DNA of 64,000 nt, taken from Thermoproteota archaeon (GTDB lineage Archaea > Korarchaeota > Korarchaeia > Korarchaeales > JAOZGB01). The position numbers and the translations under genes are program-made. The notes below the pieces were generated by a model. The model saw nothing but the letters and a program-made list of their open reading frames with translations. It was not told where the DNA came from and ran no database searches. How positions within the stretch are numbered: position 1 is the stretch's first letter; every line of letters begins with the position of its first letter. Below, piece by piece: positions 1,834 to 61,031 of the stretch. Location of the stretch: contig JAVCBU010000011.1 in the NCBI GenBank assembly GCA_037917685.1, positions 32,001 to 96,000 of the forward strand, written 5' to 3'.

Positions 1834-1837
1834 AATA

Positions 1838-2662: not shown

Positions 2663-2664
2663 TT

Positions 2665-3715: not shown

Positions 3716-4234
3716 ATGGCAAAATTCACAACTCTAGATGTGGCACTCACAATCATAGGCGCCGTAATCTACGGGCTAGGGTGCTTCGCTACAATGGGGA
3801 TAGCAATATCATTTATGACGGTTAGGCCAGCATCATGCATAGCATGTGTATGGGGCATATTATTCGGCCCATGGGTCGGAGGACTCGCGGCCGGCATAGG
3901 GAACACGTTCATATCTGATGTCCTCGCCGGATGGCTAGGCGTCGGAGGAGTTGGAGGATTCGTTGGAAACTTCGTAATGGGCTGGATGCCAGGCCAGTTC
4001 GTGAAAGACCCTGAAGACATGGTTCAGGTCATATTCTGGTCAGGCCTCTCAGCTGTCGTCTGCGCTGTAATAGTCGCGGCATGGATATCATTCCTCGGAT
4101 ACGCCCCGTTCATGACGCTATTCATCCTTATCACCGCGAGTGACCTGACAGCCAACGTAATCGGCACGCCAATACTGATCAAACTGTTATATGAGAGGGT
4201 AAGGAGGAGAGGACTGTACTGGAGGGAACGCTAA
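3716..4234 (+). CDS. ECF transporter substrate-specific S component
   Basis: 172 aa, about 6 TM helices, 'GILFGPWVGGLAAGIGN..SD' typical of S components; divergent from ecfAAT. Confidence 0.8.
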   Translation: MAKFTTLDVALTIIGAVIYGLGCFATMGIAISFMTVRPASCIACVWGILFGPWVGGLAAGIGNTFISDVLAGWLGVGGVGGFVGNFVMGWMPGQFVKDPEDMVQVIFWSGLSAVVCAVIVAAWISFLGYAPFMTLFILITASDLTANVIGTPILIKLLYERVRRRGLYWRER

Positions 4235-4271: not shown

Positions 4272-5660
4272 TTACCCTAAACATCTATCCTCATCCCACC
4301 TGGCTATCCTGTCCCTATAGTTGAAGGGTATAAGCCTGGCTTTGCCTCTGGGCTGGAGTTCACCCCTTTCATAAATAATGCTTCCGGAGACGATCGTGTA
4401 TACAATCCTTCCTTTAAGGGTTAAACCCTCATAGGGCGTCCAGTCAGCCTTCTGGTGGAGCATGTCCAAGTCTAGCTTGTACTCGTCTTTTAGGTTGATA
4501 ATTGTTAGGTCAGCGTCTGCCCCTGGGATAATTGCCCCTTTCAACGGGTATAGGCGATATATTCTGGCAGCTCCAGTGGAGACAGCATCTACAAATCTTT
4601 TGAGGGTTAGTCTCCCCTTGAGGTATCCTTCACTTAACATTAGAGGGAGTCTGGTCTCAACGCCTGGCACTCCCGCCTCAACATTCCATATGTCGTCCCA
4701 GCACTTCTCTTTCTCCTCCCTTAGGGGTGCATAGTGGTCTGAGGTTACTATGTCTACTGTTCCATCCGCAAGAGCTTTCCACAGCATGGCCCTGTCTTCT
4801 TTTGTCCCAAGCGGTGGGTTTATCGCCAGGAAAGGCCCCATATCCTTAACGTCCTCCCGTGTGAATATAAGGTAGTGAGGGCATGTTTCAACAGTGACAC
4901 CCTTCTGTTTGGCTGCTACTATATCTGGCAGAACCCTGGCGGTTGAAAGGTGAAATATGTGCAGCCTCACGTTCATGTAGGTGGCAAGGAGTATAGCTCT
5001 TTTTACAGCTTCAACCTGAGCTATGTCAGGTCTTGCCTGCCAGTGAGCGTCGGGGTCTCTCCTTCCAGCATCAACCAGTAGTTTCTGGGCTTCTCTTCTG
5101 ATCCACTCGTCCTCAGCGTGGACCGTGGCTATTAGGTTCTTTCCTGAAAGCGTTAGGAAGGATTTGTACATGAAGCCTGTATCTACGTATGGTGTTCCGT
5201 CACAGTTTGCCATCATGTGTTTATAGGATAGGGCGCCCATCCTCGCAAGCTTTTCAACCTCCCCTATATCCCTATCTCTCCATAACACTGTGTGTAGGCA
5301 AAAGTCGCACCGGGCGAGCCTCAGGCCTACTTCTACTTTCCGCCTGAAGGCTTCAACTAGGCTTTCCCTCTCCCCTGCCCTTGCAAAGTCTGCTACTAGT
5401 GTTGTTCCTCCAGCTATGGCTGCAAGGCTTCCTGTTTTAAAGTCTCCCCTGCGGGCAACCCTGGGATGTATGTGTACGTGGCTGTCGAACCCGCCGGGTA
5501 TCACCAGAAGCCCCGTCGCGTCAATATTCTCTGCAGCCTCCCCTATCGCTGCGTTTCCGCCTATGGATACAATCTTACCGTCTTTGATGCCTATTGATGC
5601 CTTAACCACGGCACCCCCAGGGAGGTAGACGTTGCCATTTCTAACTGCGAGGTCGAACAT
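4272..5660 (-). CDS. Cyclic amidohydrolase (dihydropyrimidinase/hydantoinase/allantoinase family)
   Basis: PGGFDSHVH, AGGTT, carboxylatable Lys (SYKH), VHAED, HIFHLS, ETCPHYL, TSDH, GADAD. Confidence 0.9.
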   Translation of the reverse strand: MFDLAVRNGNVYLPGGAVVKASIGIKDGKIVSIGGNAAIGEAAENIDATGLLVIPGGFDSHVHIHPRVARRGDFKTGSLAAIAGGTTLVADFARAGERESLVEAFRRKVEVGLRLARCDFCLHTVLWRDRDIGEVEKLARMGALSYKHMMANCDGTPYVDTGFMYKSFLTLSGKNLIATVHAEDEWIRREAQKLLVDAGRRDPDAHWQARPDIAQVEAVKRAILLATYMNVRLHIFHLSTARVLPDIVAAKQKGVTVETCPHYLIFTREDVKDMGPFLAINPPLGTKEDRAMLWKALADGTVDIVTSDHYAPLREEKEKCWDDIWNVEAGVPGVETRLPLMLSEGYLKGRLTLKRFVDAVSTGAARIYRLYPLKGAIIPGADADLTIINLKDEYKLDLDMLHQKADWTPYEGLTLKGRIVYTIVSGSIIYERGELQPRGKARLIPFNYRDRIARWDEDRCLG

Positions 5661-5666: not shown

Positions 5667-7583
5667 TCAACCTGGAAGTTTCCCTAGGCTTTCAAGCTCA
5701 TCTGCCACGGCTTTAAGACCTAGCTGCTCGAACTTTTCCCTGGTAACCATTCCCGTCTTGGGATCCCATCCTCTAAGCTTGTAATACTCGTCCAGCATTT
5801 GGTCGAGCTCGACAACCTGACCTTTGGCTGGCCCCTCTGGTGATGGTACCTTGGTGAATCTCTCAGGGAGTCTGTCATCCTTCCTGGCCAGTCCAAGCCT
5901 CTGATTATACGCTCTCTCAAGATTGTAGATTCTCTCACCTGCAAGCCTTATGTCTTCAGCTGACACCTGGATGCCCACGGCGAGGCTGAAGCCCATTGCT
6001 ATTTCAGGGTAGTAGACCGCCCCGCTTTCAAGTGGAAGTAGGGTTCCGGTACTCTTGCACAGCAGCAGGCTATCGCATAGGGCGGCCAGTTCTTCGCAGT
6101 CTTTTACAAGGAAGGGTTTATACTTTGGGTTTAGCCTCTCTCCAAGCTCTGGCAGATACTTCCTCCCATATCTGACGATGATCTTGCTTTCCCATATACT
6201 CTCGTCTAGAATTGGAAAGGCCTTTAGGTGGTCGGCGCCCCTGGTGGCGGTGACATGGGCCAGCCCCATGGATTTCTGGGCCCTGCCGTCCTGTGCTGGA
6301 ATTTCCATCCCCTTAACCGCCATTACATATTTATCTGAGCCTCTTCCGATCTTCTTTGACGCCCTGTGGCTTCCCTCCGCAAGTAGGTTGCCGAATCCCT
6401 TTCTGTAGGCTATCATCTCTATGAGTTTGATCATTGTGTCGTAGTCTCCCCAGTAAAGCTCTAGGCCACCAGTATCCTCCCTTGTTATTATTCCCTTCTC
6501 GTAGCATTCCATAGCCCATGCTATCGTCCCACCGGTCGAGATGGTGTCCATTCCATACTCGTTGCATAGGTAATTCATGTATATTATTGCCTCGAGATCT
6601 CCCACATAACATCTTGGCCCGAGGCTTGAGATTGTCTCATATTCAGGGTTCTTATATATTCCTTTAAACTGGCCCTTTCTTATGAGAACAGGCTTCTCGC
6701 ACAGGCACAGACAGGCGTAGCATCCTCTATCCTTAATCCGATACTCAGATCTAAGCCTTTCCCCACCAATTCTCTCAACATCTGGGAACATTCCACGCTG
6801 GAAGTTCTTGACAGGCCATCTTGCAATCTCATTCATGAGTTCTGCAAGTATTGGGGTCCCATACTTTCGACGCCTCATAATGTGCGGGTCTCTTAAGTAC
6901 TCCTCTGAAAGCTTATCCACCAGCTCCTGGAACTTGTCTGGGTAGGCGACTCTCACATCCTTTGAACCTCTGACAACTATTCCCTTAACCCTCTTAGATC
7001 CGAGGACAGCTCCTATCCCCGCTCTAGCTGCGACCCTAGTGTCATGGAATATTCCGGAATATCTTACAAGGTTCTCGCCAGCCGGGCCTATAACGGCGGC
7101 CTGGCAGGACCAGTCTCCAACCTCCTCCTTTAGGGCTTTTTCAGCCTCGGATGTCTTGAGACCCCATAACCCGTTAGCGTCTCTAATCTCAACATTATCT
7201 TCATCTATGTAGATGTAGACTGGTTTTGAGGATCTACCACTGATAATTATCATGTCATACCCTGCAAGTTTAAGCTCCGGCCCTAGGAACCCGCAGCAAG
7301 AGGAGTCTCCATATACACCAGTAAGAGGCGACCTAGCCCCAACTTGGAACCTCCCGGACTGGGGCCAAGATGTGCCTGTGAATGGCCCCACTGCCAGAAT
7401 GAAGCGGTTTTCAGGGCTGAAAGGCTTAGTATCCGGGCTTGTCTCATCCCATAGGGTTTTAGCTATGAAGCCTGCTCCCCCTATGAATTTAAGAGCAGTC
7501 TCACCTGGCAAAGGCTGGGTGAAAGTTTTCATTCTGTCAAGATCGACCCTTAGGATTCTACCTGCATACGCGTAAAATTTCAT
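5667..7583 (-). CDS. aor: Aldehyde:ferredoxin oxidoreductase family (tungstopterin) enzyme, copy 1
   Basis: RSPLTG, IGPAGENLV, AARAGIGAVLGSK, CYACLCLC, PEYET, GMDTIS, RGADHL, DDRLP, MLDEYYKLRGW. Confidence 0.93.
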   Translation of the reverse strand: MKFYAYAGRILRVDLDRMKTFTQPLPGETALKFIGGAGFIAKTLWDETSPDTKPFSPENRFILAVGPFTGTSWPQSGRFQVGARSPLTGVYGDSSCCGFLGPELKLAGYDMIIISGRSSKPVYIYIDEDNVEIRDANGLWGLKTSEAEKALKEEVGDWSCQAAVIGPAGENLVRYSGIFHDTRVAARAGIGAVLGSKRVKGIVVRGSKDVRVAYPDKFQELVDKLSEEYLRDPHIMRRRKYGTPILAELMNEIARWPVKNFQRGMFPDVERIGGERLRSEYRIKDRGCYACLCLCEKPVLIRKGQFKGIYKNPEYETISSLGPRCYVGDLEAIIYMNYLCNEYGMDTISTGGTIAWAMECYEKGIITREDTGGLELYWGDYDTMIKLIEMIAYRKGFGNLLAEGSHRASKKIGRGSDKYVMAVKGMEIPAQDGRAQKSMGLAHVTATRGADHLKAFPILDESIWESKIIVRYGRKYLPELGERLNPKYKPFLVKDCEELAALCDSLLLCKSTGTLLPLESGAVYYPEIAMGFSLAVGIQVSAEDIRLAGERIYNLERAYNQRLGLARKDDRLPERFTKVPSPEGPAKGQVVELDQMLDEYYKLRGWDPKTGMVTREKFEQLGLKAVADELESLGKLPG

Positions 7584-8029
7584 GGAGATTCACCTCTTAA
7601 CATTCTTGTAAGATACTCTATTTGCTTTCTTTGCGAAACCTGGCTTGGCGTCACTATTTTTAAAGCCTGGTTTGGACATTTCTCAACGCACACTCCGCAG
7701 AGATCACAGATGTACGCGTAGCCATCCGGGTGTATGTCTATGGCTCCTATTATGCAGGCCTCGACACAAAGTCCACAGCCTATACATCTCTCCGCGATCA
7801 CCTTCACTATCTCGTCTTCTTCGATGGCGTTTACAGGGCATACCCTGGCGCATTGAGGGCTGTAGCAGTGGACGCATGCTATAGGTAGGTCTATTAGCTC
7901 CCTTGTCCTGACAACTCTGATCCTTGACTTCCTCGGGTTATAAACTTTCTCCTTCTCAAAGGAGCATACTATTTCGCAGATCCTACAGCCCGAGCATTGA
8001 AGCGGATCAGCATAAATAAACTTCTTCAT
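7580..8029 (-). CDS. Poly-[4Fe-4S] ferredoxin (AOR electron-transfer partner)
   Basis: Four Cys clusters: CSGCRICEIVC, CVHC..PQCARVCP, CIGCGLCVEAC, CDLCGVCVEKCP. Confidence 0.92.
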   Translation of the reverse strand: MKKFIYADPLQCSGCRICEIVCSFEKEKVYNPRKSRIRVVRTRELIDLPIACVHCYSPQCARVCPVNAIEEDEIVKVIAERCIGCGLCVEACIIGAIDIHPDGYAYICDLCGVCVEKCPNQALKIVTPSQVSQRKQIEYLTRMLRGESP

Positions 8030-8033
8030 AATA

Positions 8034-9125
8034 CTACACCTCCACGATCATTCTGATGGCATGTACGGGGCAAACTGAGCTGCAAAGTCCGCACCCCTCG
8101 CATCTTTCAACAATATTGGAGGCCCTGCCGTCAACCATTTCCATGGCTTGGTATGGGCAAACCTTGACACATAGCCCGCAACCCGTACACTTCTCCTGGA
8201 TCACACTTGACTTCCAGGAGCGGTAGTCAGGTTTGCCAGTAATATTTCTAGCTGCTGATCCCACAGCCTCTGAAACACTTGAATATCCTAGAGACTCCAA
8301 TTCCTGCTCGAATTCGTTTACTATACGGTCTAGCTTCTCTACGCCGTGGATCAGCGCTGCTGTAAGCACACCGAAAGCATCGGCCCCTGCCATAACCATC
8401 TCAACGGCATCTCTTCCGTTCGAAATCCCTCCTCCACCTATGATTGGATTCTTAAAGCTCCTGTATAATTCGCTTACAACCCTGAGGGCGATCGGCTTCA
8501 ACGCGGGCCCGCTTACATATCCATAACCGTACTTTGCCCCGAGCACCGGCCTCCTATTCTCTATATCAAGAAGCAGGCCAGGGCCTATAGTATTGATTCC
8601 GGATAGAACCTTACAACCTGCCTCAACAGCCGCCTTCACATGGGACATAGGGGTTAGCGGGCCCACCTTGACAGCCAATGGCACGCTGACTTTCTCAAGT
8701 GCTGCTTTGACCGTATGAGTAATCCATTTTTCACCTATGGTTGAGGGGATCGGAATCTCTATAAGGTCTGCACCCGCATCCTGAAGTATCCCGGCCATCC
8801 AGGCTGTCTTTTCAGGATCCATGTCTAGCACACTGACAAATACTGGCTTGTTGGACTCAGCCTTTAGCTGAGGAAGCTCACGGGAAATCATGTCTATTGA
8901 CGGGGCTGACCAATCATAGTTTATCAGGCCCCCGCTGAAATGGTACATGTTAGGCTTTGGTGTATCCATGGCTCTTGCTTTGACTGTTTTTATTGTTATC
9001 GCTCCGATCTTAAAGTTTAACAGTCTTTTAGCCGCCGTACAGTCTCTTGTGAGAGGTCCTGGAAAAACTACAAGGGGATATTCAAGGGTTAACCCCCTTT
9101 CTATGGTTACGGTCAGATCTACCAT
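8034..9125 (-). CDS. Dihydropyrimidine/dihydroorotate dehydrogenase-like (PreA-type) FMN protein with C-terminal 2x[4Fe-4S]
   Basis: ITIKT, VKVGP, SGINT, GYVSGPALKPIAL, IIGGGGI, MAGA, plus CTGCGLCVKVCP and CEGCGLCSSVCP. The usual ELNxSCP catalytic loop reads EIPIPS. Confidence 0.85.
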   Translation of the reverse strand: MVDLTVTIERGLTLEYPLVVFPGPLTRDCTAAKRLLNFKIGAITIKTVKARAMDTPKPNMYHFSGGLINYDWSAPSIDMISRELPQLKAESNKPVFVSVLDMDPEKTAWMAGILQDAGADLIEIPIPSTIGEKWITHTVKAALEKVSVPLAVKVGPLTPMSHVKAAVEAGCKVLSGINTIGPGLLLDIENRRPVLGAKYGYGYVSGPALKPIALRVVSELYRSFKNPIIGGGGISNGRDAVEMVMAGADAFGVLTAALIHGVEKLDRIVNEFEQELESLGYSSVSEAVGSAARNITGKPDYRSWKSSVIQEKCTGCGLCVKVCPYQAMEMVDGRASNIVERCEGCGLCSSVCPVHAIRMIVEV

Positions 9126-9128: not shown

Positions 9129-10988
9129 CTATTCACCCTTAACCTTTATCTTGAGTTCTACAAGCTTTTCCTCTGGGACTATTCCGTCACTGGTCCATCC
9201 TCTAAGCTTGTAGTACTCGTCAAGCATGGGGTCAAGCTCTACAGTCTGGCCTTTAAGGCCACCCTCTGGTAGAGGCTCTTCTAGAAGCCTCCTTGGAAGC
9301 TGGTCGTCCTTCCTTGTAATCCCGTGGAGATTATTGTAGTGCCTCTCCAAGTTTATTATCCTCTCACCTATCCTCATAATCTTTTCAACAGTAAACTCTA
9401 CACCTGTTAGATGGCTTAGCGCCTCTGCCAGTAGCTCCGCTGATAATGTGTAGAAGGTAAAGAAGGTATACTTGCAGGCGATTACAGAGTCTAGTACAGC
9501 CCCAAGATCCTCGTGATACTTAACCATAGGCGCTTTTCCTCTTATTGAGAGGGGGTCAACTGAGTCAGGGCTTCCATAGAGTTTCTCCCCAAGCTCCGGG
9601 GGGAAGCCTATAAGTTCAAAGTTTACTAGGGCCCTTAGATGGTCTGCTCCTCTACTTGCAACTGCAAGCCCCAGGCCAAATCCCTTTGCCCCCCTAACCT
9701 CTACCGCCGGAAGCTCCATACCTTTAACATGCATAGCACATCTTGAGGCTTCCTCTCCAAACTTTCTTGAGGCTCTTGCACAGCCCTCAGCCAGCACGTT
9801 CCCGAATCCTTCACGCCTAGCTATCATCTTTATGAGTCTTATCATGACTTCGCTGTCACCCCACAGGATGTCTATACCCCCTGTATCCTCCCTTGTTATT
9901 ATTCCCTTCTCGTAGCACTCCATAGCCCACGCTATCGTCCCACCGGTCGAGATGGTGTCGAGGCCAAGGCGATTGCATAGCTCATTCATTTCTATTATTG
10001 AAGCGAGGTCTGAGTTCCAGCAGTTTGAACCGAGGCATACTAGGGTTTCATATTCTGGCCCTTCTCCCCCTACACATTTGGAGCCGCTCACAAACATGGC
10101 ATAGTTACTGCAGTGGATAAGGCATGCAAAGCATGCCCTATCCTTAACCTTGTACCTGGAGTCAAGCTCCTCAGCAGATAATAGCTCTCCCTCGGGGAAT
10201 ATTGAGGTCTGCCTATTCCCAGTTGAGATTCTGCCTGCCAGTAGCGCCCTGTCAACTATTGATGGGGTTCCATACCTGGAGAAATACTCGTAGCCTGGTG
10301 CCTCCATTATGAGCTCTGAGGCTTTGTCGCATACCTCCTCAAACTTTCGAATGTTGGCAGCTTCAACCATGCCTTCACCTGAGACTGCTACCGCCTTAAG
10401 CCTTTTAGACCCCATTACAGCTCCTACACCTGTTCTAGCAGCCAGCCGGTACTTCTCATTTACTATACCAGCATACCTCACCAGGTTTTCCCCTGCCGGC
10501 CCTATACATGCAACCCTAACGCCTGGGAGGGTGGACTCCTTTATTCTATCTTCGGTTTCCCATGTGTCTAGGCCCCACAGGTTAGAGGCGTCTCTTATCT
10601 CAGCCTCACCGTCAAATATCATTATGTACACAGGCTTTTCAGCTCTCCCCACTATGACGATGGCGTCAAAACCTGCATACTTCAGCTCTGGTCCAAAGTA
10701 ACCGCCTGAGTTGGCGTCTCCAAGTATACCTGTAAGGGGTGACTTTGCTGTTACGGAGTAGCGGCCTGATCCCGGGAACCTTGTCCCGACAAGCGGGCCT
10801 ACCGAGAATATTAGGTAGTTATCTGGCGAATATGGATCGACATCCGGGTTTGTGGTTTCGTATAGGATTCTTGATCCTATTCCCCTGCCTCCAAGGTAGA
10901 GTCTAAGGTTTTCCCGACTGGATTCCTGCAGTACAACTTTCCCCTTGGAGAGGTCTATAAATAGGGTTTTCCCAGTCCAGCCGTACAT
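9129..10988 (-). CDS. aor: Aldehyde:ferredoxin oxidoreductase family (tungstopterin) enzyme, copy 2
   Basis: MYGWTGK start, KSPLTG, IGPAGENLV, GAVMGSKRLKA, CFACLIHC, GPEYET, LGLDTIS, RGADHL. Confidence 0.93.
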   Translation of the reverse strand: MYGWTGKTLFIDLSKGKVVLQESSRENLRLYLGGRGIGSRILYETTNPDVDPYSPDNYLIFSVGPLVGTRFPGSGRYSVTAKSPLTGILGDANSGGYFGPELKYAGFDAIVIVGRAEKPVYIMIFDGEAEIRDASNLWGLDTWETEDRIKESTLPGVRVACIGPAGENLVRYAGIVNEKYRLAARTGVGAVMGSKRLKAVAVSGEGMVEAANIRKFEEVCDKASELIMEAPGYEYFSRYGTPSIVDRALLAGRISTGNRQTSIFPEGELLSAEELDSRYKVKDRACFACLIHCSNYAMFVSGSKCVGGEGPEYETLVCLGSNCWNSDLASIIEMNELCNRLGLDTISTGGTIAWAMECYEKGIITREDTGGIDILWGDSEVMIRLIKMIARREGFGNVLAEGCARASRKFGEEASRCAMHVKGMELPAVEVRGAKGFGLGLAVASRGADHLRALVNFELIGFPPELGEKLYGSPDSVDPLSIRGKAPMVKYHEDLGAVLDSVIACKYTFFTFYTLSAELLAEALSHLTGVEFTVEKIMRIGERIINLERHYNNLHGITRKDDQLPRRLLEEPLPEGGLKGQTVELDPMLDEYYKLRGWTSDGIVPEEKLVELKIKVKGE

Positions 10989-11441
10989 TTAAACACCCAG
11001 CTGGATATCTCCCGCTATCTCAATCATGGTGTTCCACAGCTTTGTTTTTCTATGATCCCAGCTGTCGGTAACTTTTAGTTTTTTAACAGGGCATTTTTCA
11101 ATGCACACCCCGCAAAGGTCGCACTTAAAGGCTTTCCCATTATAATAGGCTACTGCTCCGAACGGGCACGCCACTATGCAGAGCCCACAGCCAATGCACT
11201 TTTCCTGGCTTAGCTGTACGATGTTGTTCTCTCTGTACAGTGCGTCTGTCGGACATACGTCTATGCAGGGGGCTTTATTGCAGTTCTTACATGTAGTGAT
11301 GTAATCCCCCTCTTTGAGTCTTACAACCGTTATAGCTGAGGATGTAGGCTTATATACGCCGAGGTTCTCGGCAGTACACGCCAGCATACATATTTTGCAG
11401 CCTACACATTCTAGCGGGCTTATTGAAATGTAGACCGGCAT
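10989..11441 (-). CDS. Poly-[4Fe-4S] ferredoxin (AOR electron-transfer partner)
   Basis: Four Cys clusters. ATG at 11441 lies just after the upstream gene's stop; the ORF track starts it at 11450. Confidence 0.92.
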   Translation of the reverse strand: MPVYISISPLECVGCKICMLACTAENLGVYKPTSSAITVVRLKEGDYITTCKNCNKAPCIDVCPTDALYRENNIVQLSQEKCIGCGLCIVACPFGAVAYYNGKAFKCDLCGVCIEKCPVKKLKVTDSWDHRKTKLWNTMIEIAGDIQLGV

Positions 11442-11442
11442 T

Positions 11443-12846
11443 TCAACCACTCATCCAGGGTGGCTCCCAGGGCGGTGAGACTGGTGTTTCCTCAGCCTTC
11501 TCTCTGAACTTGTATGCGTTCTCCTCAATCTTCCTGTACGCCTCTTCCTCATCAACCTTTAATATTCTTCCTTTCTCAGAGACGAGTTCCCCGTCTATGA
11601 AAACGTACTCCACGTCGAATCCCCGGACATAATTTGCAACGAGGCTAAGCTTGTCCTCTACAGGCTGAAATCTGGGCTTATCTATGTCGATAACTATTAT
11701 ATCCGCCTTCTTGCCAGGCTCGATGCTTCCTATCTCATGGTCTAACCCCAAAGCCTTAGCTCCGTTTATCGTGGCCATCTCTAAAGCCTGCATTGGTGTT
11801 ATTAGGCTCCTGTCTAGATGGTGTACTCTCAACAGGTATGTTGATATCATCATAAACTCGAACATGTCTGACCAGCCGCCGTCTAGCCCGTAGGCAACAT
11901 TAACTCCTCTACGTAATAGTTCTACGACGGGTGCAATGCCGTGTCCGCCGCGCATGTTACTTTTTACGTTGAAGGCCACGTTTATCCCTGTCCTCTGTAT
12001 TGTGTTTAGCTCGTCCTCATATACGTAGATGCAGTGCGCAACTATCACGTCAGGCTTTAAGAAGCCGAGGCTGTGGAGGAAGTCTATAGATCCCTTCTTC
12101 CCATACCATTTCTTTATTAGGTTAACCTCGTATGGGCTTTGGGCCACGTGCAGTTGGATGCCTGCTTTGTACTCATCAGACAGCTCTCTAACTTTCCTGA
12201 AATACTCTGGTGAGCTTGAAAATGGAGCGTGAACCCCGAACATTCCTCTAATCCTTGAATCTGGCTTAGAATTCCACTTCCTGATAAACTCTAGGTTCGC
12301 TTCAAGCCCCTTATAGCCATGCTCCACCCCCAGCCTTTGGCTTGCCTCGAACGAGATTACAGCCCTAATCCCAACCTCCATCACCGCCTTCGCCTCCCAG
12401 TCCAGGGCTTCCGGAATATCGTTTGGAACCTCCATCAGATCCGAGGTTGTTGTAACACCAGCCCGAACCATGTCCATTGACATGGCTAGAGCTCCATAGT
12501 AGGCTTCTTCGCGTGTGGCTGTCTCCTCAAACCTTGGCCAGTAAACCCTTGTAAGTAGATCTCCGAACTTATCGACAGTAGCCATACCAGGTGGAGGATA
12601 GGTCACCCTCAGGTTTCTTAAATGATAAACCGGCATGTGATTATGCACGTTAACCATGCCCGGCATTATTATCTTGTTAGAAGCATCTATGTCAAGGTCA
12701 GCCTCACCATAAAGCTCAGAAGCCTTATCCGACTCCCCAACGAAAGTTATCCTTCCATCTTCAACGATTACCGTCCCGTCCTCGATTAGCCTTCTATTGG
12801 CGTCCATAGTAATTATAAAACCATGTCTTAGAGCTATATCAGCCAT
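11443..12846 (-). CDS. SsnA-like metal-dependent amidohydrolase (deaminase/aminohydrolase)
   Basis: MPGMVNVHNH, YYGAL, VGIRA..FE, GVHAPF, WYGK, AHC, N..SNM, GLDG..SDMFE. This motif string resembles E. coli SsnA as recalled; not verified by search. Confidence 0.85.
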   Translation of the reverse strand: MADIALRHGFIITMDANRRLIEDGTVIVEDGRITFVGESDKASELYGEADLDIDASNKIIMPGMVNVHNHMPVYHLRNLRVTYPPPGMATVDKFGDLLTRVYWPRFEETATREEAYYGALAMSMDMVRAGVTTTSDLMEVPNDIPEALDWEAKAVMEVGIRAVISFEASQRLGVEHGYKGLEANLEFIRKWNSKPDSRIRGMFGVHAPFSSSPEYFRKVRELSDEYKAGIQLHVAQSPYEVNLIKKWYGKKGSIDFLHSLGFLKPDVIVAHCIYVYEDELNTIQRTGINVAFNVKSNMRGGHGIAPVVELLRRGVNVAYGLDGGWSDMFEFMMISTYLLRVHHLDRSLITPMQALEMATINGAKALGLDHEIGSIEPGKKADIIVIDIDKPRFQPVEDKLSLVANYVRGFDVEYVFIDGELVSEKGRILKVDEEEAYRKIEENAYKFREKAEETPVSPPWEPPWMSG

Positions 12847-30221: not shown

Positions 30222-31490
30222 TTGGATAGAGGCGTTGTGTACAAGGTGTTGGAGAAGGTCAAGGACATGAGAGGCGAAATTATAGAGTTCCTCCAAAGTC
30301 TTATATCTTATAGGAGCGTGACTGGGGAGGAGCTTGAGATTCAGAGGTTTATTGAGGGCTATCTTAAGAGTTTGGATTTGGAGGTTGACGTTTGGGAGCC
30401 TGATTGGGATGAGCTTAGGAGGCATCCAGCCTATGTTCCTGTGGAGATGGGTTACGAGGGGAGGCCGAACGTTGTGGGGCTTTACAAAGGCATCGGTGGG
30501 GGGAGGTCTCTACTCTTTAATGGCCACGTGGATGTTATACCAGCTGATCCTGAGGCTTGGAGTGTTGACCCATGGGCTGGCGTGGTTAAGGATGGAAAGC
30601 TACATGGTAGGGGAGCTTCCGACATGAAGTCAGGCCTTGCGGCTTTCACGATGGCCCTTAAGACAGTTTTGGATCTGGGATTCAAGCTTAAGGGAGATGT
30701 CATACTTGAATATGTGGTTGATGAGGAGTTTAGCGGGCACGGAACCTTGTCGGCGATACTGAGGGGTTACAGGGCTGATGCTGGGATTAGCTGTGAGGCA
30801 AGCGACATGCAGATACAGCCAGCTACAACAGGGTCTATGTGGTTTGAGATAGAGGTTGAAGGTAAGACTGCCTCTATGAGCAGGCGGTGGGAGGCTGTGC
30901 CAGCCATTGATAAGGCCTATAAGGTTTATAGGGCAGTATCAGAGCTTGAAGAGATAAGAATACAGGAGATTAGACACCCCTTATACCCTGACAACAGGGG
31001 TAGCCTGGCATTGTTCATAGGAATGTTTAATGCCGGGAACTATCCTAGTAGCATTGCCGATAGGGCTGTCTTGAAGGGAAGGATGGGTGTACTACCATGC
31101 GAGGATCCCCGCCAGGCGCAGAATCAGCTTAAAGAGTATATTTCTAGGGTTTCGGAGCTTGACCCGTGGCTCAGGAATCATAAGCCTAGGGTTGAGTTTA
31201 AGGGCTACTACGCGGAGCCAGCTGAGATACCAGCAGATCACCCTATCGTTAAGACTCTCGAGGAATGTTATAGGACGGCTCTCGGGAAAAATCCTGTTGT
31301 CAGGGGGCATGATGGGGCTGCGGACACCAGGTTCCTGATAAAGTATGGTAACACTCCTACCCCGATTTTCGGCCCTGGAACAATAACGCAGATGCACGCC
31401 ACGGACGAGTGGGTTAGAGTTGAAGACCTAATCGACTCAGTGAAAGTTTTAGCATTGACTATTCTTGAATGGTGCGATTATGAGGTGTAA
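30222..31490 (+). CDS. M20 family deacylase (ArgE/DapE-like)
   Basis: NGHVDV, GRGASDMK, DEE, FGPG...MHATDE. Confidence 0.92.
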   Translation: MDRGVVYKVLEKVKDMRGEIIEFLQSLISYRSVTGEELEIQRFIEGYLKSLDLEVDVWEPDWDELRRHPAYVPVEMGYEGRPNVVGLYKGIGGGRSLLFNGHVDVIPADPEAWSVDPWAGVVKDGKLHGRGASDMKSGLAAFTMALKTVLDLGFKLKGDVILEYVVDEEFSGHGTLSAILRGYRADAGISCEASDMQIQPATTGSMWFEIEVEGKTASMSRRWEAVPAIDKAYKVYRAVSELEEIRIQEIRHPLYPDNRGSLALFIGMFNAGNYPSSIADRAVLKGRMGVLPCEDPRQAQNQLKEYISRVSELDPWLRNHKPRVEFKGYYAEPAEIPADHPIVKTLEECYRTALGKNPVVRGHDGAADTRFLIKYGNTPTPIFGPGTITQMHATDEWVRVEDLIDSVKVLALTILEWCDYEV

Positions 31491-31495
31491 TAGGA

Positions 31496-32794
31496 ATGTC
31501 TGCAGGTGATATCGTCGAGAAATATCAGAAGTATATCATTCCATCGAGCATTGAGGGCAGAAGGAGCCTGGTTATAGTTAGGGCGAGCGGCGCAGTGGTG
31601 TGGGACTCTGAAGGTAGGGAATACATAGACTGCCACTCCGGATATGCTGCGGTTAATCTTGGCCACTGCCATCCTAGGGTTGTAGAGGCTGTTAAGAGAC
31701 AGCTTGAAAGAGTATGGCATACATCGTGGGATTATAATACTATTCCTACTGCCCTTCTAGCCGAGAAGCTTGTGGATATAACACCTGAAAGCCTCTGCAA
31801 GGTTATGTTTTTAAGTACGGGGGCTGAGGCTGTCGAGAACGCTGTTAAACTCTCGAAGAAGAGGGCATCAAGCCGCGGGAGGCCTGGCTCTTATATTATC
31901 TCCCTTATGGGTGGCTTTCACGGTAGAACTTCCTATGCAATGGCTCTCACAGGCAACGTTAAGTATAAGGCTGGGCTGTCAACCTATGTTCACCAAGGGG
32001 TAATACATATACCGCCACCATACTGTTACAGGTGCTTCTTCAAGCAGGAATACCCTGAGTGTGGCCTGTACTGTGCAGAATACCTTGAGAGGATTCTCAG
32101 ATTTACAGGTGCAGGAGACATCGCAGGAATGATTGTTGAGCCTATAATGGGAGAGGGAGGAATAATCCCGCTACCAGACGGCTACCTCGAGAGGGTTTCA
32201 GAGACGGTTAGAAACGCGGGTGGAGTCATAATTATAGATGAAATTCAGACGGGCTTCGGCCGAACAGGGAGGCTATTCGGCTTCGAATGGTCAAACATAA
32301 TACCTGACATCTTAACACTTGCAAAGGGGATAGCAAGCGGGCTCCCAATATCCGCTGTAGTGACAACCATGGATATAGGAGAGCTGCTTAGCCCCGTAGA
32401 TCATACGTCGACGTACGGCGGAAACCCTGTAGCTTCTGCGGCAGCCCTTGAAAATATTAAGGTTATACTTGAGCTTAGACTATGGGAGAACGCTGCTAAG
32501 ATCGGGGAAATGTTTCTTAAGAGCCTTCAGGAACAGATGGATAAGTACAGGTTCATAGGCGATGTCAGGGGGAGAGGCTTAATGATAGGGGTGGAGATAG
32601 TTGACATGGGAAGGCCAAGTCCCTTAAAGGCTGAGAAAATAAGGGAAGAAGCTGAAAAGAGAGGCTTACTGGTGAACGTTGGAGGCATGTATGGAAATGT
32701 ACTTAGAATTCAACCTCCATTGTCAATAACATCTGATCAGGCGGCAAGGGCGCTTACCATACTTGACCAGGTATTCAAGACAGTTGAAGATTGA
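31496..32794 (+). CDS. Class III PLP aminotransferase (GABA/ornithine/beta-alanine type)
   Basis: GAEAVENA, FHGRT, EPIMGEGG, DEIQTGFGRTG, TLAKG, TYGGNP. Confidence 0.93.
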   Translation: MSAGDIVEKYQKYIIPSSIEGRRSLVIVRASGAVVWDSEGREYIDCHSGYAAVNLGHCHPRVVEAVKRQLERVWHTSWDYNTIPTALLAEKLVDITPESLCKVMFLSTGAEAVENAVKLSKKRASSRGRPGSYIISLMGGFHGRTSYAMALTGNVKYKAGLSTYVHQGVIHIPPPYCYRCFFKQEYPECGLYCAEYLERILRFTGAGDIAGMIVEPIMGEGGIIPLPDGYLERVSETVRNAGGVIIIDEIQTGFGRTGRLFGFEWSNIIPDILTLAKGIASGLPISAVVTTMDIGELLSPVDHTSTYGGNPVASAAALENIKVILELRLWENAAKIGEMFLKSLQEQMDKYRFIGDVRGRGLMIGVEIVDMGRPSPLKAEKIREEAEKRGLLVNVGGMYGNVLRIQPPLSITSDQAARALTILDQVFKTVED

Positions 32795-32957
32795 AGGATT
32801 CAAAATAAGTTAGACATGTACGCTTAAGAAGGGATTCTAGACTTGAGTCGGTCCCTTATATGTGAACTCTGCATTGTCTTCTACTAAATTGTTACTCCGA
32901 TTTGAGCTGGAGTCTATGTGAATTATGATAAATATGTTAGTGGTTGCTCCTGGTAAA

Positions 32958-33086
32958 TTGGCTGTGAGTACGAAGGATATTCTGGAGAAAAGGCTAAAAG
33001 AGCTTCAGAGAATGGTTCCAGAGATAGAGGGTGCAGCTGTTGTCAGCAGCGACGGCCTTACCAACCCTACCAATCATAAATGTTAG
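32958..33086 (+). pseudogene. Truncated Roadblock/LC7 (MglB-like) gene fragment
   Basis: Not in the ORF track. Translates MAVSTKDILEKRLKELQRMVPEIEGAAVVSSDGL then degenerates to TAG; 'PEIEGAAVVSSDGL' is typical of a roadblock N-terminus. Confidence 0.6.
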
Positions 33087-33116
33087 CGTTTTTAACTACT
33101 CCCGATTAAGGTTTAA

Positions 33117-35423
33117 GTGTTTGTAAGGTGGAGGTGTGTGCATCGGTCGGGCAAGTTTGAGGTTATAGGTAGATCAATGGTAAGACTCGACGCTTGGGAT
33201 AAGCTTAGTGGCAGAATAAAGTTCACCGGTGACTTAAAGGTTCATGGGATGCTTTATGGCAGGGTGGTTAGAAGTAAGATCCCGCATGGCATCCTCAGCG
33301 GAGTCTCAGACTCTGATGCTTTGAGTGTGCCAGGTGTTATGGCGGTTTACACAGCTGAAGATATTCCAGGTGAAAATCAGGTTGGTTACGCTGTTGAAGA
33401 TCAGCCTCTTCTGGCGTATGAGAGGGTTAGGTTCATAGGGGATCCCGTGGCGATAGTGGTGGCTGAGAGTAGGCGTTCGGCGTGGCAGGCATGCCAGCTT
33501 GTAGAAGTTAATGTGGACCCCCTACCAGCTGTCTTCACGGTTGAGGAAGCCCTTAAACCGGATGCTCCAAGGATTCACCCTCATGGGAACATAGCGGAGA
33601 CGTCTAGAATTAGGAAGGGGGATGTAGATGAAGCTTTTAAGCGTGCCTACGTCACTGTGGAAAACGTGTACAGGCTAGGGCATCAAGAGCACGTCTACCT
33701 TGAGACTGAAGCTGCGCTTGCTATACCAGAGTCTGGGAGGATAACTGTTATAGGTAGTATGCAGTCTCCCTTCCTGGTTAGAAGGATTATTTCGAGGGTT
33801 CTGGGCCTGGAGGAGTCCAGGATTAGAGTTATACAGGCGCCTACCGGCGGCGCTTTCGGTGGTAAGGATGATATGGGACCGCTGGTCTGTGGAAAAGCTG
33901 CCGTTGCAGCTTATAACATCGGACGGCCTGTCCTCCTATTGTATGACCGTGAGGAAAGCATTGTTTCAAGCAATAAGAGACATCCAGCCATTATAAGGTA
34001 CGCTTCAGCCGTTGATAAAAACGGAAAACTTCTCGGTGTAAAGGTTGATATAACAATGGACGTTGGGGCATATGCGAACCGTGGCCCATACGTGCTTTGG
34101 AGGGCGACCTTCCACTCTGCAGGGCCGTACTATGTCCCAAACGTCTGGGTTGACGGGAGAGCTGTCTACACCAACAAGGTCTTCTCAGGGTCATTTAGGG
34201 GATTTGGCGACCCACAGATACATTTTGCAGCTGAGTCCCAGATGGACATTCTAGCGCAGAAGCTTGGAATGGACCCCTTGGAGTTTAGGCTTAAAAATGC
34301 CCTGAGGCAAGGCCAGGATACTACATGCGGCCAGGTGCTAGACCACTCTGTAGGAATAGTTGAAGCCCTCACCAGGATAAAGGAGGCATCTGGCTGGGAC
34401 AAGCTTAGAAAACTCTATGGAGAAAACAGGGGGAGATACAGGCGTGGCGTAGGGGTTGCCTGTGCATATCATGGGATAAGTACGAGTAAGGGTGTCCCCG
34501 ACTACAGTGCTGCCTCGGTCGTCGTGAACAGGGATGGTACAGTGCTCTATAGGAGTGGTATTTGCATGCTTGGACAAGGCTCGCTGACAGGCCATGCTAA
34601 GATAGTTGCAGAGATCCTGGGAATACCTCTGGACTGGATTCGGATAAGTGAAAGGGATACTGACTCCGTTCCGGATTCAAGGCCGACACATGGGTCTAGA
34701 GGGCTTATGGCTGGCGGTACAGCCGCTGCTGATGCGGCTTGGAAGGTGAGAAGGAAGCTTGAGAAGGTTGCTAGGAGAATCTTAGAAGTCGAAGGGGCTG
34801 TCATATTTAGAAATGGAATCGTATATGCCAAGGATTCTCCTGAAAGCCGGGTCTCCTTCAGAGAGGCTGTAGAGGAGGCTTATAGGTTGGGGATAATTCC
34901 AGCTGCCTACGGGTTCTACCATCTGCCAGAAAGATACTTCGACCCGGAAACAGGCCTTGGAAAGGCGTATGCATGCTACACTTTCATTGTCAATGTTGTC
35001 GAGCTCCAGGTAGACACCCTGACAGGTGAGGTAAAAGTGTTAAGGGTTTGGTCTGCTGCTGATGTTGGCAGAGCGATAGATCCTCTGCTGATTAGGGGGC
35101 AGATCGAGGGAGCAATTGTTCAGGGGATAGGCTACGCACTTATTGAGAAGCTTGTGCTAAGGGAGGGTCAGATACTTAATCCCAACCTGACCGACTACAC
35201 GATCCCAGTTGCATCGGACACTCCAGAGATAATAGAGCCTATAATTGTGGAGGATGAGTATAGGAACTCGGTGTTCGGAGCTAAAGGCGTTGCTGAGGCA
35301 GCTCTCATACCCACCCCTCCAGCAATAGCAAATGCCATATACCACGCAATCGGTATAAGGCTGAAAGAGGTTCCCATGACCCGGGAAAAGATATTAGAGT
35401 ATTTGGAGGGCGGGGAGGGTTGA
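33117..35423 (+). CDS. Xanthine dehydrogenase family molybdopterin-binding large subunit
   Basis: QSPF, GGAFGGK, SFRGFG, THGSRG, GQIEGAIVQGIG, KGVAE. Start may be GTG at about 33138. Confidence 0.93.
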   Translation: MFVRWRCVHRSGKFEVIGRSMVRLDAWDKLSGRIKFTGDLKVHGMLYGRVVRSKIPHGILSGVSDSDALSVPGVMAVYTAEDIPGENQVGYAVEDQPLLAYERVRFIGDPVAIVVAESRRSAWQACQLVEVNVDPLPAVFTVEEALKPDAPRIHPHGNIAETSRIRKGDVDEAFKRAYVTVENVYRLGHQEHVYLETEAALAIPESGRITVIGSMQSPFLVRRIISRVLGLEESRIRVIQAPTGGAFGGKDDMGPLVCGKAAVAAYNIGRPVLLLYDREESIVSSNKRHPAIIRYASAVDKNGKLLGVKVDITMDVGAYANRGPYVLWRATFHSAGPYYVPNVWVDGRAVYTNKVFSGSFRGFGDPQIHFAAESQMDILAQKLGMDPLEFRLKNALRQGQDTTCGQVLDHSVGIVEALTRIKEASGWDKLRKLYGENRGRYRRGVGVACAYHGISTSKGVPDYSAASVVVNRDGTVLYRSGICMLGQGSLTGHAKIVAEILGIPLDWIRISERDTDSVPDSRPTHGSRGLMAGGTAAADAAWKVRRKLEKVARRILEVEGAVIFRNGIVYAKDSPESRVSFREAVEEAYRLGIIPAAYGFYHLPERYFDPETGLGKAYACYTFIVNVVELQVDTLTGEVKVLRVWSAADVGRAIDPLLIRGQIEGAIVQGIGYALIEKLVLREGQILNPNLTDYTIPVASDTPEIIEPIIVEDEYRNSVFGAKGVAEAALIPTPPAIANAIYHAIGIRLKEVPMTREKILEYLEGGEG

Positions 35424-36286
35424 AGGTAATACCTTCATTCGAGTATTACAGGGTGGAAAGCCTTGAGGAAGCGCTTAAGCTACTCTCCAAAGTTGAAGAA
35501 CCAACAATCATCGCTGGAGGAACAGACCTCATCCCTGCCATGCGCGACGGGCTAGAGCCAATGAGCATTGTTGACATAAGTAGGATAGAAGAGTTAGAGT
35601 ATATTAGGAGAGAGAATGGATACGTTAAAATAGGCTGTTTAACCACTATCAGCACGCTCGAAAGCTCAGACATAATCCAGTCATACGCTTATTCTCTCGC
35701 TGAGGCTTCACGGCTTATGGCATCAATCCATGTTAGGAATAAGGCAACCATTGGAGGCAACCTTTGCAATGCATCACCAGCCGCTGACACAGCTCCACCC
35801 CTCCTAACATACGATGCTGAAGTAGTCTTGGCATCAGCCTCAGGATCCCGTGTAGTCAAGCTTAACCAGTTCTTTAAGGGGCCGAAGAAGACCTGTCTCA
35901 GAAAGAACGAGCTTCTAGTTGAGGTAAGATTTAAACCAGCAGGCAGGTCTGCTTCCTGCTTCATGAAGCTTGGTAGGAGGACGAGCTTCACAATGTCAAT
36001 AGTGTCTGCAGCGGTCAAGGTGGAGGTTGACGGTGGCAGGCTTAGAAATGTCAGAATAGCCCTTGGATCCGTGGCTCCCATGCCTGTTAGAGCTTTAAGG
36101 TCGGAGAAATTCCTCGAGGGGAAGAAGCCAACCCAAGAAAACATCTCAATGGCAGCGAAGCTTGTACTCAAGGATATAAGCCCAATAACAGACGTACGGT
36201 CGACTGCAGAGTATAGAAAAAAAGTCTCACAAGTCCTGGTTATGGATGCCCTTAAGAAAGCGCTTGAAAGGGTGAAGGAAGCATGA
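35420..36286 (+). CDS. XDH family FAD-binding medium subunit
   Basis: IAGGTDL, RNKATIGGNLCNASPAAD, DVRSTAEYR. Confidence 0.93.
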   Translation: MKVIPSFEYYRVESLEEALKLLSKVEEPTIIAGGTDLIPAMRDGLEPMSIVDISRIEELEYIRRENGYVKIGCLTTISTLESSDIIQSYAYSLAEASRLMASIHVRNKATIGGNLCNASPAADTAPPLLTYDAEVVLASASGSRVVKLNQFFKGPKKTCLRKNELLVEVRFKPAGRSASCFMKLGRRTSFTMSIVSAAVKVEVDGGRLRNVRIALGSVAPMPVRALRSEKFLEGKKPTQENISMAAKLVLKDISPITDVRSTAEYRKKVSQVLVMDALKKALERVKEA

Positions 36287-36750
36287 AGATCAGGTTAAAG
36301 GTTAACGGCAAATGGGTAAAGCTTCAAGCTCACGAGTATGAAACTCTCCTAGAGATCCTGAGAGACAGGCTTGAAATCACAAGTGTGAAGGAGGGCTGCC
36401 TGAAAGGAGAATGCGGCGTCTGCACAGTACTTCTGGATGGGAGGCCTGTAAACTCCTGCCTAGTGCTGGCACCACAGGCGGATGATAGAGAGGTGACAAC
36501 GCTTGAAGGCCTACTACAAGATGAAACCATGAAAAACATCCAGGAAGCATTCGCAAGGAACGGGGCAGTCCAATGCGGCTACTGCACCCCTGCCATGCTC
36601 CTAGTCGCCTGGTACCTTGTAAAGTCAGGGATAAACTCGACGGAGGAGGTTAAACGGTGCATTTCAGGGGTGTTGTGCAGGTGCACAGGGTATGTAAGCA
36701 TCGTAAAGAGTATAGCCCAGGTCGCTGCAAAGATGAAAAGCAGCCTCTAA
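36283..36750 (+). CDS. XDH family (2Fe-2S) small subunit
   Basis: GCLKGECGVCTV, NSC, QCGYCTP, CRCTGY. Confidence 0.94.
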   Translation: MKIRLKVNGKWVKLQAHEYETLLEILRDRLEITSVKEGCLKGECGVCTVLLDGRPVNSCLVLAPQADDREVTTLEGLLQDETMKNIQEAFARNGAVQCGYCTPAMLLVAWYLVKSGINSTEEVKRCISGVLCRCTGYVSIVKSIAQVAAKMKSSL

Positions 36751-60969: not shown

Positions 60970-61031
60970 GGACGCAGCCCCTAATACTGGAACCCGATAT
61001 ATTTATATTAGCCTTTTGGATTCTACTCACA

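Follow-up and report, generated by a model that had tools for sequence, protein, structure and literature searches.

A UacX-like iron-sulfur flavoprotein in an archaeal operon, putatively wired to tungsten aldehyde oxidoreductase and polyferredoxin modules

What does a flavoprotein of the dihydroorotate dehydrogenase (DHOD) kind reduce, and from where does it draw its electrons, if it has neither the catalytic loop of that family nor an adjoining NAD(P)H-oxidizing subunit? The question is raised by P0001, a protein of 363 amino acids that is encoded, from an ATG start, by a minus-strand open reading frame (ORF; 8034..9125) in a korarchaeal genome. The window analyzed here is the whole 64,000-nucleotide stretch surrounding it (contig JAVCBU010000011.1, positions 32,001 to 96,000), and coordinates without a contig label refer to that stretch. 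Genes for deoxyhypusine synthase, Nre, and a family B polymerase mark the genome as archaeal. The public sequencing runs listed as holding it were two DNA runs, each a possible source of the assembly, and none of RNA. Based on the comparisons below, P0001 is probably an Fe-S-fed N-heterocycle ring reductase of the UacX kind, acting in a breakdown pathway of purine type and wired to modules of tungsten-type aldehyde oxidoreductase (AOR) and polyferredoxin, with both the substrate and the complex being putative. What is most unusual about the locus is the recurring association with these AOR/polyferredoxin modules, and not the loss of the loop. Three points go beyond the first-pass annotation of this DNA, which was made from the letters alone: the minus-strand orientation, the family name UacX together with an assayed member, and the recurrence of the AOR/polyferredoxin pairing.

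A flavoprotein without the catalytic loop

The gene and the parts of its product that matter to the argument are the following.

8034..9125, minus strand: UacX-like FMN and 2x[4Fe-4S] reductase P0001 (Pfam, NCBIfam, tree, AlphaFold2, Foldseek)
8733..8768, minus strand: shortened active-site loop of P0001, residues 120-131, DLIEIPIPSTIG, with no Asn and no Cys (alignments)
8901..8930, minus strand: residues 66-75 of P0001, GLINYDWSAP, resembling the UacX signature FLN[TA]ELWSE (alignment)
8037..8210, minus strand: ferredoxin domain of P0001, residues 306-363, two CxxCxxCxxxCP motifs (Pfam, Cys motifs)

In class 1 DHODs and PreA, the loop Asn-x-Ser-Cys-Pro-Asn provides the catalytic Cys and the Asn that binds the pyrimidine. 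In our alignments of 53, 42, 11, and 12 sequences, this loop is E-M-N-V-S-C-P in true PreA proteins and E-L-N-x-S-C-P in PyrD. The corresponding stretch of P0001, 'lieipi..pst..igekw', faces 'IELNIscPNVkhGGQAFG' of L. lactis DHOD-B (1ep1), with Pro in place of the loop Asn and the Ser-Cys pair deleted, and in the 12-row alignment a PyrD has 7 more residues in the loop, and a PreA 9 more. The absence of the catalytic Asn/Cys loop, as well as the two unusual strings at residues 120-131 and 66-75, had been read correctly in the first-pass annotation.

This loss is not peculiar to P0001. Barrel-plus-ferredoxin fusions of ~360 amino acids have loops 7-9 residues shorter than those of PyrD and PreA, the majority reading ELSTHY, and the nearest relatives of P0001 read EIPIPS, ELPTPR, EIGGSG, E-SFES, EFPAGE, or EFPIDP. 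As aligned, the short loop without Asn-x-Ser-Cys-Pro is family-wide and occurs in every lineage of the fusions. The first-pass annotation had considered that close homologs might all keep NxSCP, making the P0001 loop a private degenerate allele; the alignments instead revealed a family without it, and the private allele was rejected because the relative P0002, 86% identical to P0001, has nearly the same loop (two residues differ, SAVD standing for STIG) and the Cys loop is missing throughout the family. The further suggestion of a different substrate or mechanism, possibly with a Ser base, survives in part: P0001 does not look like a normal DHOD or dihydropyrimidine dehydrogenase (DPD), and the loss of the loop is shared by the family, but a Ser base was rejected since Ser128/Thr129 are not conserved even in P0001's own 11-member clade.

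The remainder of the enzyme appeared intact, as first annotated. A DHO_dh domain (PF01180) spans residues 11-276 (E 3.7e-28), and Pfam matches of the 4Fe-4S dicluster and Fer4 types cover residues 306-360, where eight Cys make up two CxxCxxCxxxCP motifs (C313/316/319/323 and C342/345/348/352). All eight were invariant in a 42-row alignment, and in a 100-row alignment all were invariant except C316 and C323, which were kept in at least 90% of rows. K46, N69, K153, the GGGGI stretch, and G247-A248, which we take to be the FMN and substrate contacts of class 1 DHODs, are all kept in P0001 according to the alignments; among its relatives, K46, K153, N69, Trp72, and the glycine-rich phosphate-binding stretches were conserved, with N69 and W72 invariant within P0001's own 11-row clade. 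An AlphaFold2 model built from the 100-row alignment reached a mean pLDDT of 97.5 and a pTM of 0.93. Given the domain E-values and the confidence of this model, P0001 is a genuine gene, and a chance ORF was ruled out on the same grounds. The top Foldseek match of the model was pig DPD (E 2.8e-26, TM 0.85 by query), extending over the barrel and the Fe-S domain, followed by class 1A DHODs (TM 0.72-0.74), while by sequence the closest solved structures were 5ksw and 1ep1, both of them class 1B DHODs (E ~1e-20). Pfam detected no FAD Rossmann (Pyr_redox_2) or FAD/NAD domain in P0001.

These matches to DHOD-B and DPD, in sequence and in fold, also invite a more conventional reading, namely that P0001 or its paralog is the cell's real DHOD or DPD, working with an unconventional base and with a partner encoded elsewhere. 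Consistent with this, searches with PF01180 and NF041011 found no canonical PyrD in the genome (1.81 Mb, 22 contigs, 95% complete), in which pyrF is present (C6:259832-260419; C1, C6, and C7 denote contigs of this genome), and the hydantoinase-like protein adjoining P0001 in its operon also scores with dihydroorotase and dihydropyrimidinase models. The other weak PF01180 matches in the genome were a glutamate-synthase-type protein and PcrB. However, ~5% of the genome is unassembled, so the missing PyrD may be a gap, and several related genomes have, besides a UacX-like gene, a separate match of ~300 residues without an Fe-S domain that is probably PyrD. P0001 itself lacks the catalytic Cys/Ser and both loop Asn, and it falls far under the NCBIfam equivalog cut-offs, with 145 versus 269 bits for PRK07259, 140 versus 335 for PreA (PRK08318), and 136 versus 330 for archaeal PyrD. 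With respect to a partner, neither a PreT/GltD (Fer4_20) nor a PyrK (DHODB_Fe-S_bind) domain was found by Pfam among the 53 window ORFs scanned, in agreement with the first-pass annotation; the only PyrK-like gene of the genome is a hydrogenase gamma subunit in a hydrogenase operon, and the sole GltD-like gene stands by itself on a different contig. We therefore give the DHOD/DPD reading very little credence.

Kinship with UacX

An exhaustive search with P0001 recovered 11,833 proteins at E <=1e-3, 118 of them at E <=1e-30, and a word-indexed search gave 2005 relatives among 8000 scored candidates, in which P0002 stood at 86% identity and every other at <=40%. The loop-less family has already been named (UacX, 2025) and has one assayed member. 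According to the paper that describes it (Li et al. 2025, Life Metab, PMC12507026), UacX of C. difficile, which belongs to PF01180 and has an FMN site and no FAD domain, replaces the NAD(P)H-dependent YgfK. Together with SsnA, either CdUacX or EcYgfK converts 2,8-dioxopurine to ureidomethylhydantoin, the UacX assay being driven by reduced methyl viologen, and the reduction of 2,8-dioxopurine by UacX or YgfK is productive only when coupled to SsnA (PMC12507026).

P0001 and CdUacX were 32.5% identical over their full length by blastp (E 8e-53). The first of two UacX sequence patterns is partly kept in P0001 (LINYD-WSA), and the second is replaced (ADLIEIPIP). A second homolog in the same genome, located at C1:185001-186209 and hereafter the C1 paralog, has 402 amino acids, the loop EFSLHYLG, and 43% identity to CdUacX. 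In a FastTree reconstruction of 132 rows, a quick method that left deep forks unresolved, CdUacX, the C1 paralog, and its archaeal orthologs formed a UacX clade of 50 rows (support 100), while P0001 and P0002 were placed on a long branch in a separate clade of 11 rows (support 99). P0001 thus has the architecture of a UacX but, by this placement, lies outside the UacX clade itself. The first-pass annotation had proposed a ferredoxin-linked ring reductase, which seems essentially right in that it fits both CdUacX (PMC12507026) and the operon context described below. Moreover, barrel relatives of P0001 are fused to modules of the FrhB/FdhB (F420) type in P0174 and P0237, and of the GltD (NAD(P)H) type in P0230 and P0251; therefore, the barrel appears to be the substrate site, and the electron source to be exchangeable.

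The genomic setting of bacterial UacX was surveyed with the patterns FLN[TA]ELWSE and ADA[LV]ELSTH, which were derived from ten ELSTH-type sequences. Against species-representative genomes they yielded 437 stretches, 431 of which were confirmed, and the best 80 loci were kept. These best 80 of 431 came mostly from Clostridia, Negativicutes, and Acidobacteriota, and among the Clostridia were C. perfringens and C. difficile, the latter with four records. Neighbors were counted by blastp of the window proteins versus all ORFs of each locus, and comprised an SsnA-type protein in 76/80, a molybdenum subunit of the xanthine dehydrogenase (XDH) family in 73/80, an M20 peptidase in 67/80, and a hydantoinase-like protein in 49/80. 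AOR and polyferredoxin stood beside UacX in a single locus of the 80, that of Maledivibacter. In C. difficile the locus encodes, by domain, a sigma-54 activator, a PALP enzyme, an M20 peptidase, Amidohydro_3, Amidohydro_1, a xanthine/uracil permease, DHO_dh+Fer4, Amidohydro_1, and a 2Fe-2S/MoCo protein. By gene name it is YgeX-YgeY-UacY-SsnA-permease-UacX-HyuA-XdhD, the same as the published uricolytic cluster (PMC12507026).

An operon with polyferredoxins and variant AORs

P0001 is the fourth of seven minus-strand genes that occupy 12846 down to 4272 and are separated, or overlap, by <=6 bp, save for an 8-bp overlap between the first amidohydrolase gene and that of polyferredoxin A. Their order is an SsnA-type amidohydrolase, polyferredoxin, AOR, P0001, polyferredoxin, AOR, and a dihydropyrimidinase/hydantoinase-type amidohydrolase; besides P0001, the genes are as follows.

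11443..12846, minus strand: amidohydrolase of the TRZ/ATZ/SsnA/deaminase group, 467 amino acids, first operon gene (Pfam Amidohydro_1, E 2.6e-58)
10989..11450, minus strand: polyferredoxin A, 153 amino acids, 4x[4Fe-4S], AorA/YgfS-like (Pfam Fer4 families)
9129..10988, minus strand: AOR A, tungsten-type, 619 amino acids, with Val where P. furiosus AOR has Tyr427 (AFOR_N, E 3e-81; AFOR_C, E 6e-133)
7580..8029, minus strand: polyferredoxin B, 149 amino acids, 4x[4Fe-4S], starting 4 bp after the end of P0001 (Pfam)
5667..7583, minus strand: AOR B, 638 amino acids, with Gln at the Tyr427 position, overlapping polyferredoxin B by 4 bp (Pfam)
4272..5660, minus strand: cyclic amidohydrolase of the dihydropyrimidinase/hydantoinase/allantoinase group, HyuA-like, 462 amino acids, last operon gene (NCBIfam)

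The flanking by ferredoxins and AORs that the first-pass annotation had noted is thus borne out, with polyferredoxins at 7580-8029 and 10989-11450 and AORs at 5667-7583 and 9129-10988, the AOR A gene beginning directly after that of polyferredoxin A. Both polyferredoxins have 16 invariant Cys in a 17-row alignment, enough for four clusters, and are 31-35% identical to E. coli YgfS (31% for polyferredoxin A). The first-gene amidohydrolase, for which all NCBIfam scores lay under cut-off (PRK06038, 309.8 bits; SsnA PRK07203, 268 bits), is a candidate ring-opening partner of P0001. The last-gene amidohydrolase matched the NCBIfam D-hydantoinase best (305 bits versus a cut-off of 393) and is 31% identical to E. 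coli HyuA.

The C1 paralog has comparable neighbors, being followed by a polyferredoxin, a ThiS/MoaD-like gene, and two AORs in succession, with a further polyferredoxin beside them. The ThiS/MoaD-like gene, which lies between the polyferredoxin and the AORs, encodes 93 amino acids (locus L016 of C1, 14689-14970). Across the phylum, represented in our collection by 43 species genomes, 13 loci with full-length homologs were present in 10 genomes from 4 genera. In 10 of these 13 loci (3 genera), polyferredoxin and AOR genes were immediate neighbors of the homolog, usually in the order polyferredoxin-AOR-homolog-polyferredoxin-AOR-hydantoinase-like-AOR, and the pairing was missing from L055, L056, and the short contig L058. 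A hydantoinase-like gene was present in 11/13 and an SsnA-type gene in 5/13. AOR therefore occurred in 10/13 archaeal versus 1/80 bacterial loci, and XDH in 0/13 versus 73/80; in archaea, AOR/polyferredoxin takes the place in the cluster that is held by XdhD in bacteria. Among 34 metagenome loci with long matches, many of them on short contigs, AOR was found in 5 and an SsnA-type neighbor in 12, and two (L151 and L154) had the order polyferredoxin-AOR-homolog-polyferredoxin-AOR.

The hydantoinase-like genes of the relatives' UacX-clade clusters were orthologous to C6:316196 (45-47% identity), which adjoins a YgeW-like carbamoyltransferase, and the SsnA genes near those clusters were orthologous to C1:114098 (65-67%), with 33-35% identity to E. 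coli SsnA. A YqeA-like carbamate kinase is also present in the genome, in which no YgeX was detected at E 1e-10 and 50% coverage. From these orthologies, the genome seems to hold a dispersed set of 2,8-dioxopurine type around the C1 paralog, and the window operon seems to be a second, compact paralog set around P0001, found otherwise only in the source of P0002. As a paralogous copy, the window cluster may act on another heterocycle than the C1 system does.

We propose that electrons would enter P0001 through its two C-terminal clusters and pass to FMN, which would pass a hydride to a C=N bond, or to an activated C=C bond, in an oxo-N-heterocycle; a purine-type ring akin to 2,8-dioxopurine is the most likely candidate. 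Once reduced, the ring would be unstable, and the operon's amidohydrolases would open it, the SsnA-like one first and the hydantoinase-like one second, thereby pulling the unfavorable reduction. If a C=N is reduced, as is supposed for 2,8-dioxopurine, the proton would go to nitrogen, and the loss of the Cys loop would be tolerable because no carbon-protonating Cys is needed. P0001 has no NAD(P)H module; two polyferredoxins would instead link it to two AORs in a ratio of 2 AorA-like to 2 AorB-like to 1 flavoprotein. The AORs might donate electrons by oxidizing aldehydes, perhaps derived from a class III aminotransferase acting on the amine end product of the pathway, or might share a common electron supply; alternatively, the heterocycle itself might be their substrate, with the role of XdhD falling to them.

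The architecture recalls AorABC of Aromatoleum aromaticum, in which AorAB units form a polyferredoxin wire that ends in a single capping flavoprotein, Aor(AB)2-3C (PMC10413684), and P0001 would take the place of the FAD subunit AorC in an assembly of this kind. It might even be argued that P0001 does nothing else, serving only as the electron-exit subunit of an AOR complex and passing electrons from FMN to NAD(P)+, quinone, fumarate, or another cofactor, with the amidohydrolases as passengers. The stoichiometry of two polyferredoxins and two AORs to one flavoprotein at both loci of the genome resembles Aor(AB)2-3C (PMC10413684), no amidohydrolase was present in the 20 kb examined at the C1 locus, and the substrate-binding loop is degenerate and variable inside P0001's clade, all of which would suit such a role. 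Nevertheless, the assayed member UacX reduces a heterocycle at its FMN site (PMC12507026), the fusions of relatives to NAD(P)H- or F420-type input modules make the barrel a substrate site and not a pyridine-nucleotide site, and a hydantoinase-like gene is present in 11/13 archaeal clusters. For such a role, the genome already possesses an AorC-like Pyr_redox_2 subunit distinct from P0001 (C1:162247-163515), located next to an AOR in a conventional AorABC-like set of two polyferredoxins, AOR, and flavoprotein (C1:162247-166456, L142). We consider an exclusive electron-exit role distinctly improbable. The L142 set adjoins a nucleoside-binding ABC transporter of PnrA/Bmp type. A structure prediction for a complex of P0001 and polyferredoxin B, run without controls, scored 0.00 and carries no weight either way.

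The AORs themselves deserve attention. AOR A and AOR B are close to P. furiosus AOR (1aor; E 2.7e-152 and 2.2e-135, respectively) and also to Aromatoleum AorB. AOR A keeps T243, E311, Y312, E313, and H448, with Val in place of Y427. When the 13 AORs of this genome were aligned with 16 others encoded in the relatives' clusters (29 rows), Thr243, Glu311, Tyr312, Glu313, and His448 were kept throughout, apart from Phe for Tyr312 in one row. Gln occupied the Tyr427 position in 16/16 AORs of the relatives' UacX-like clusters, as well as in window AOR B and both C1-locus AORs, whereas window AOR A has Val; overall, the 13 AORs of this genome had 5 Gln, 1 Val, 3 His, and 4 Tyr. As described in a recent review (PMC12096430), Tyr427 is among four conserved second-shell AOR residues and is represented by His in AOR-Cf and WOR5 and by Trp in the inactive WOR4, its replacement being linked to altered function in WOR4 and WOR5. 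Judged from the alignment, the Gln-variant AORs look like an undescribed AOR subclade.

This variation opens another reading, in which the Gln/Val-variant AORs replace XdhD and act on the purine ring themselves, by dehydroxylation of lactam to imine or by the reverse hydroxylation, so that a single polyferredoxin wire serves successive reactions, those of P0001 and those of the AORs. The exchange of XDH for AOR between bacterial and archaeal clusters speaks for it, as do the uniform Gln of the relatives, the Gln in three of the four AORs beside this genome's two paralogs (the fourth being Val) while Tyr is retained in four further AORs of the genome, and the altered function associated with Tyr427 replacement in WOR4/WOR5 (PMC12096430); the carbons of the acid/aldehyde and lactam/imine couples would, furthermore, be at equal oxidation levels. 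On the other hand, AOR A and AOR B are very near the classical P. furiosus enzyme and keep Thr243, Glu313, and His448, and the window itself has two XDH-family enzymes. Moreover, no AOR-family enzyme is known to act on heterocycles, as judged from a non-exhaustive search that included passages of PMC12096430. Taken together, we regard this reading as unlikely. A bolder version would make the Tyr427-to-Gln/Val AORs of this small archaeal phylum tungsten purine lactam/imine oxidoreductases that replace the Mo/Se XdhD and form, with two polyferredoxins and the UacX-like flavoprotein, an (AB)2C 'nanowire'. Both two-electron steps of purine dearomatization, or hydroxylation coupled to ring reduction, would then proceed with no free ferredoxin or NAD(P)H, and the P0001 clade would extend the scheme to a second heterocycle; we regard this version as quite unlikely.

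Several observations weigh against the reading we favor, that of a UacX-like reductase fed through AOR/polyferredoxin modules. P0001 lies outside the clade that holds CdUacX, and none of 33 metagenome homologs (>60% query coverage) falls in its own clade. Moreover, the substrate is not transferable from CdUacX because the loop varies even inside P0001's clade. The window SsnA-like protein is 26% identical to E. coli SsnA versus 25% to the guanine deaminase GuaD, and a closer SsnA homolog (C1:114098, 35%), as well as a better HyuA homolog, is located elsewhere in the genome. A single AOR adjacency is weak evidence in a genome with 13 AOR paralogs, and the argument hence rests on recurrence; the related loci, in turn, stem from few genera, and loci of one genus are not independent.

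Twenty kilobases from the operon is a plus-strand block that contains the following genes.

30222-31490, plus strand: M20 peptidase (Pfam)
31496-32794, plus strand: class III aminotransferase (Pfam)
33117-36750, plus strand: three-subunit XDH-family molybdenum hydroxylase (Pfam)

The block (30222..36750) is possibly the other half, downstream or upstream, of the operon's pathway, a link suggested by the M20 and XDH neighbors in 67/80 and 73/80 bacterial UacX loci. A class III aminotransferase is also present in the metagenome loci L150, L172, L177, and L216. The second XDH-family gene of the window is located at 60885-63407.

Directly downstream of the operon, 994-4234 encodes an ECF transporter on the minus strand, consisting of a CbiQ-type T component and two ABC ATPases, with a divergent S component of the same set that matched the RibU type weakly (PF07155, E 2e-7); the transporter could import flavin or the pathway substrate. 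The same gene string ends with an arginase-family ureohydrolase (16-981). Just upstream of the operon is a nucleotidyltransferase/HEPN pair, a typical toxin-antitoxin-like module (13415-14585). Farther away, an aconitase X (42542-44002) and an AllH-like oxamate carbamoyltransferase subunit (54564-55376) likewise hint at ureide/oxamate metabolism in the window. A carboxyltransferase domain is split between the ORFs 56373-56894 (profile positions 1-147) and 55530-56345 (158-427), and the OAD-beta ORF at 57654-58511 begins at profile position 72 and overlaps a biotin ligase ORF; these split or shortened ORFs in 55530-58511 may reflect frameshifts or assembly errors. Elsewhere in the genome, C7:5806-9469 (L143) has a polyferredoxin, an AOR, and Amidohydro_3, the Pfam family of UacY, in a row, which is another pairing of AOR and amidohydrolase.

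Comparison with known systems

Reductive, ferredoxin-type purine dearomatization was recognized only in 2025, and only in bacteria. If the reading we favor is true, enzymes of this type are also found in marine-sediment archaea, and several uncharacterized clades of the family differ in their loops and so, probably, in their substrates. That the Cys loop is lost family-wide would point to hydride-to-C=N chemistry without a carbon-protonating residue, unlike that of DPD and DHOD. The complex would represent a new quaternary design of AOR, in which an FMN/Fe-S catalytic cap stands in place of the FAD/NAD cap, and the AOR family might gain a new class of reaction. It would also bear on the electron balance of energy-limited subsurface archaea that use nucleobases as carbon and nitrogen sources. 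New here are the divergent archaeal clade, the presence of a second, paralogous cluster within the same genome, and the systematic way in which polyferredoxins and Gln/Val-variant AORs are coupled to the flavoprotein. Searches of open-access full text turned up no AOR complex with a DHOD- or PreA-like subunit, and the passages searched of the review cited above (PMC12096430) name no AOR partner of FMN, dihydroorotate, or PreA type.

The FMN domain of PreA/DPD and class 1B PyrD have the same fold as P0001 and share its FMN-binding Lys, and the C-terminal Fe-S domain corresponds to that of PreA. P0001 differs from both in the loop, which is 7-9 residues shorter and has no catalytic Cys or loop Asn, and in having no adjoining PreT or PyrK. 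E. coli YgfK has the same pathway role as UacX, coupled to SsnA (PMC12507026). Unlike P0001, it is a protein of 1032 amino acids with a GltD-like FAD/NAD module, and blastp found no match between P0001 and YgfK at E 1e-3. PydAc of Clostridium chromiireducens is a ferredoxin-dependent uracil reductase which, like P0001, is an FMN-domain enzyme without NAD(P)H or FAD domains, and which is fed by reduced ferredoxin or viologen; according to its published description it keeps two Fdx domains with, in theory, four [4Fe-4S] clusters (PMC7332683), whereas P0001 has one such domain with eight Cys.

UacX of C. difficile shares with P0001 the DHO_dh barrel with one C-terminal 2x[4Fe-4S] domain and no FAD/NAD domain, the short loop without Asn-x-Ser-Cys-Pro, the retained N-x-[DE]-x-W-S segment, and SsnA-type and HyuA-type amidohydrolase neighbors. 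The two are set apart by an identity of 32.5%, placement in separate clades, EIPIPST in place of ELSTHY, and the archaeal host of P0001, and also by their partners: AOR/polyferredoxin pairs, and not XdhD, flank P0001, and its amidohydrolases, unlike those of UacX, are paralogs of the genome's best SsnA and HyuA homologs. Finally, AorC of Aromatoleum is an FAD Rossmann protein that reduces NAD+, while P0001 is an FMN TIM barrel with two clusters and an unrelated sequence, and the 2:2:1 content of the P0001 locus is a count of genes, compared with the Aor(AB)2-3C composition of the AorABC complex. The likeness lies in the arrangement, as each flavoprotein is encoded together with AorA-like polyferredoxins and AorB-like AORs (PMC10413684).

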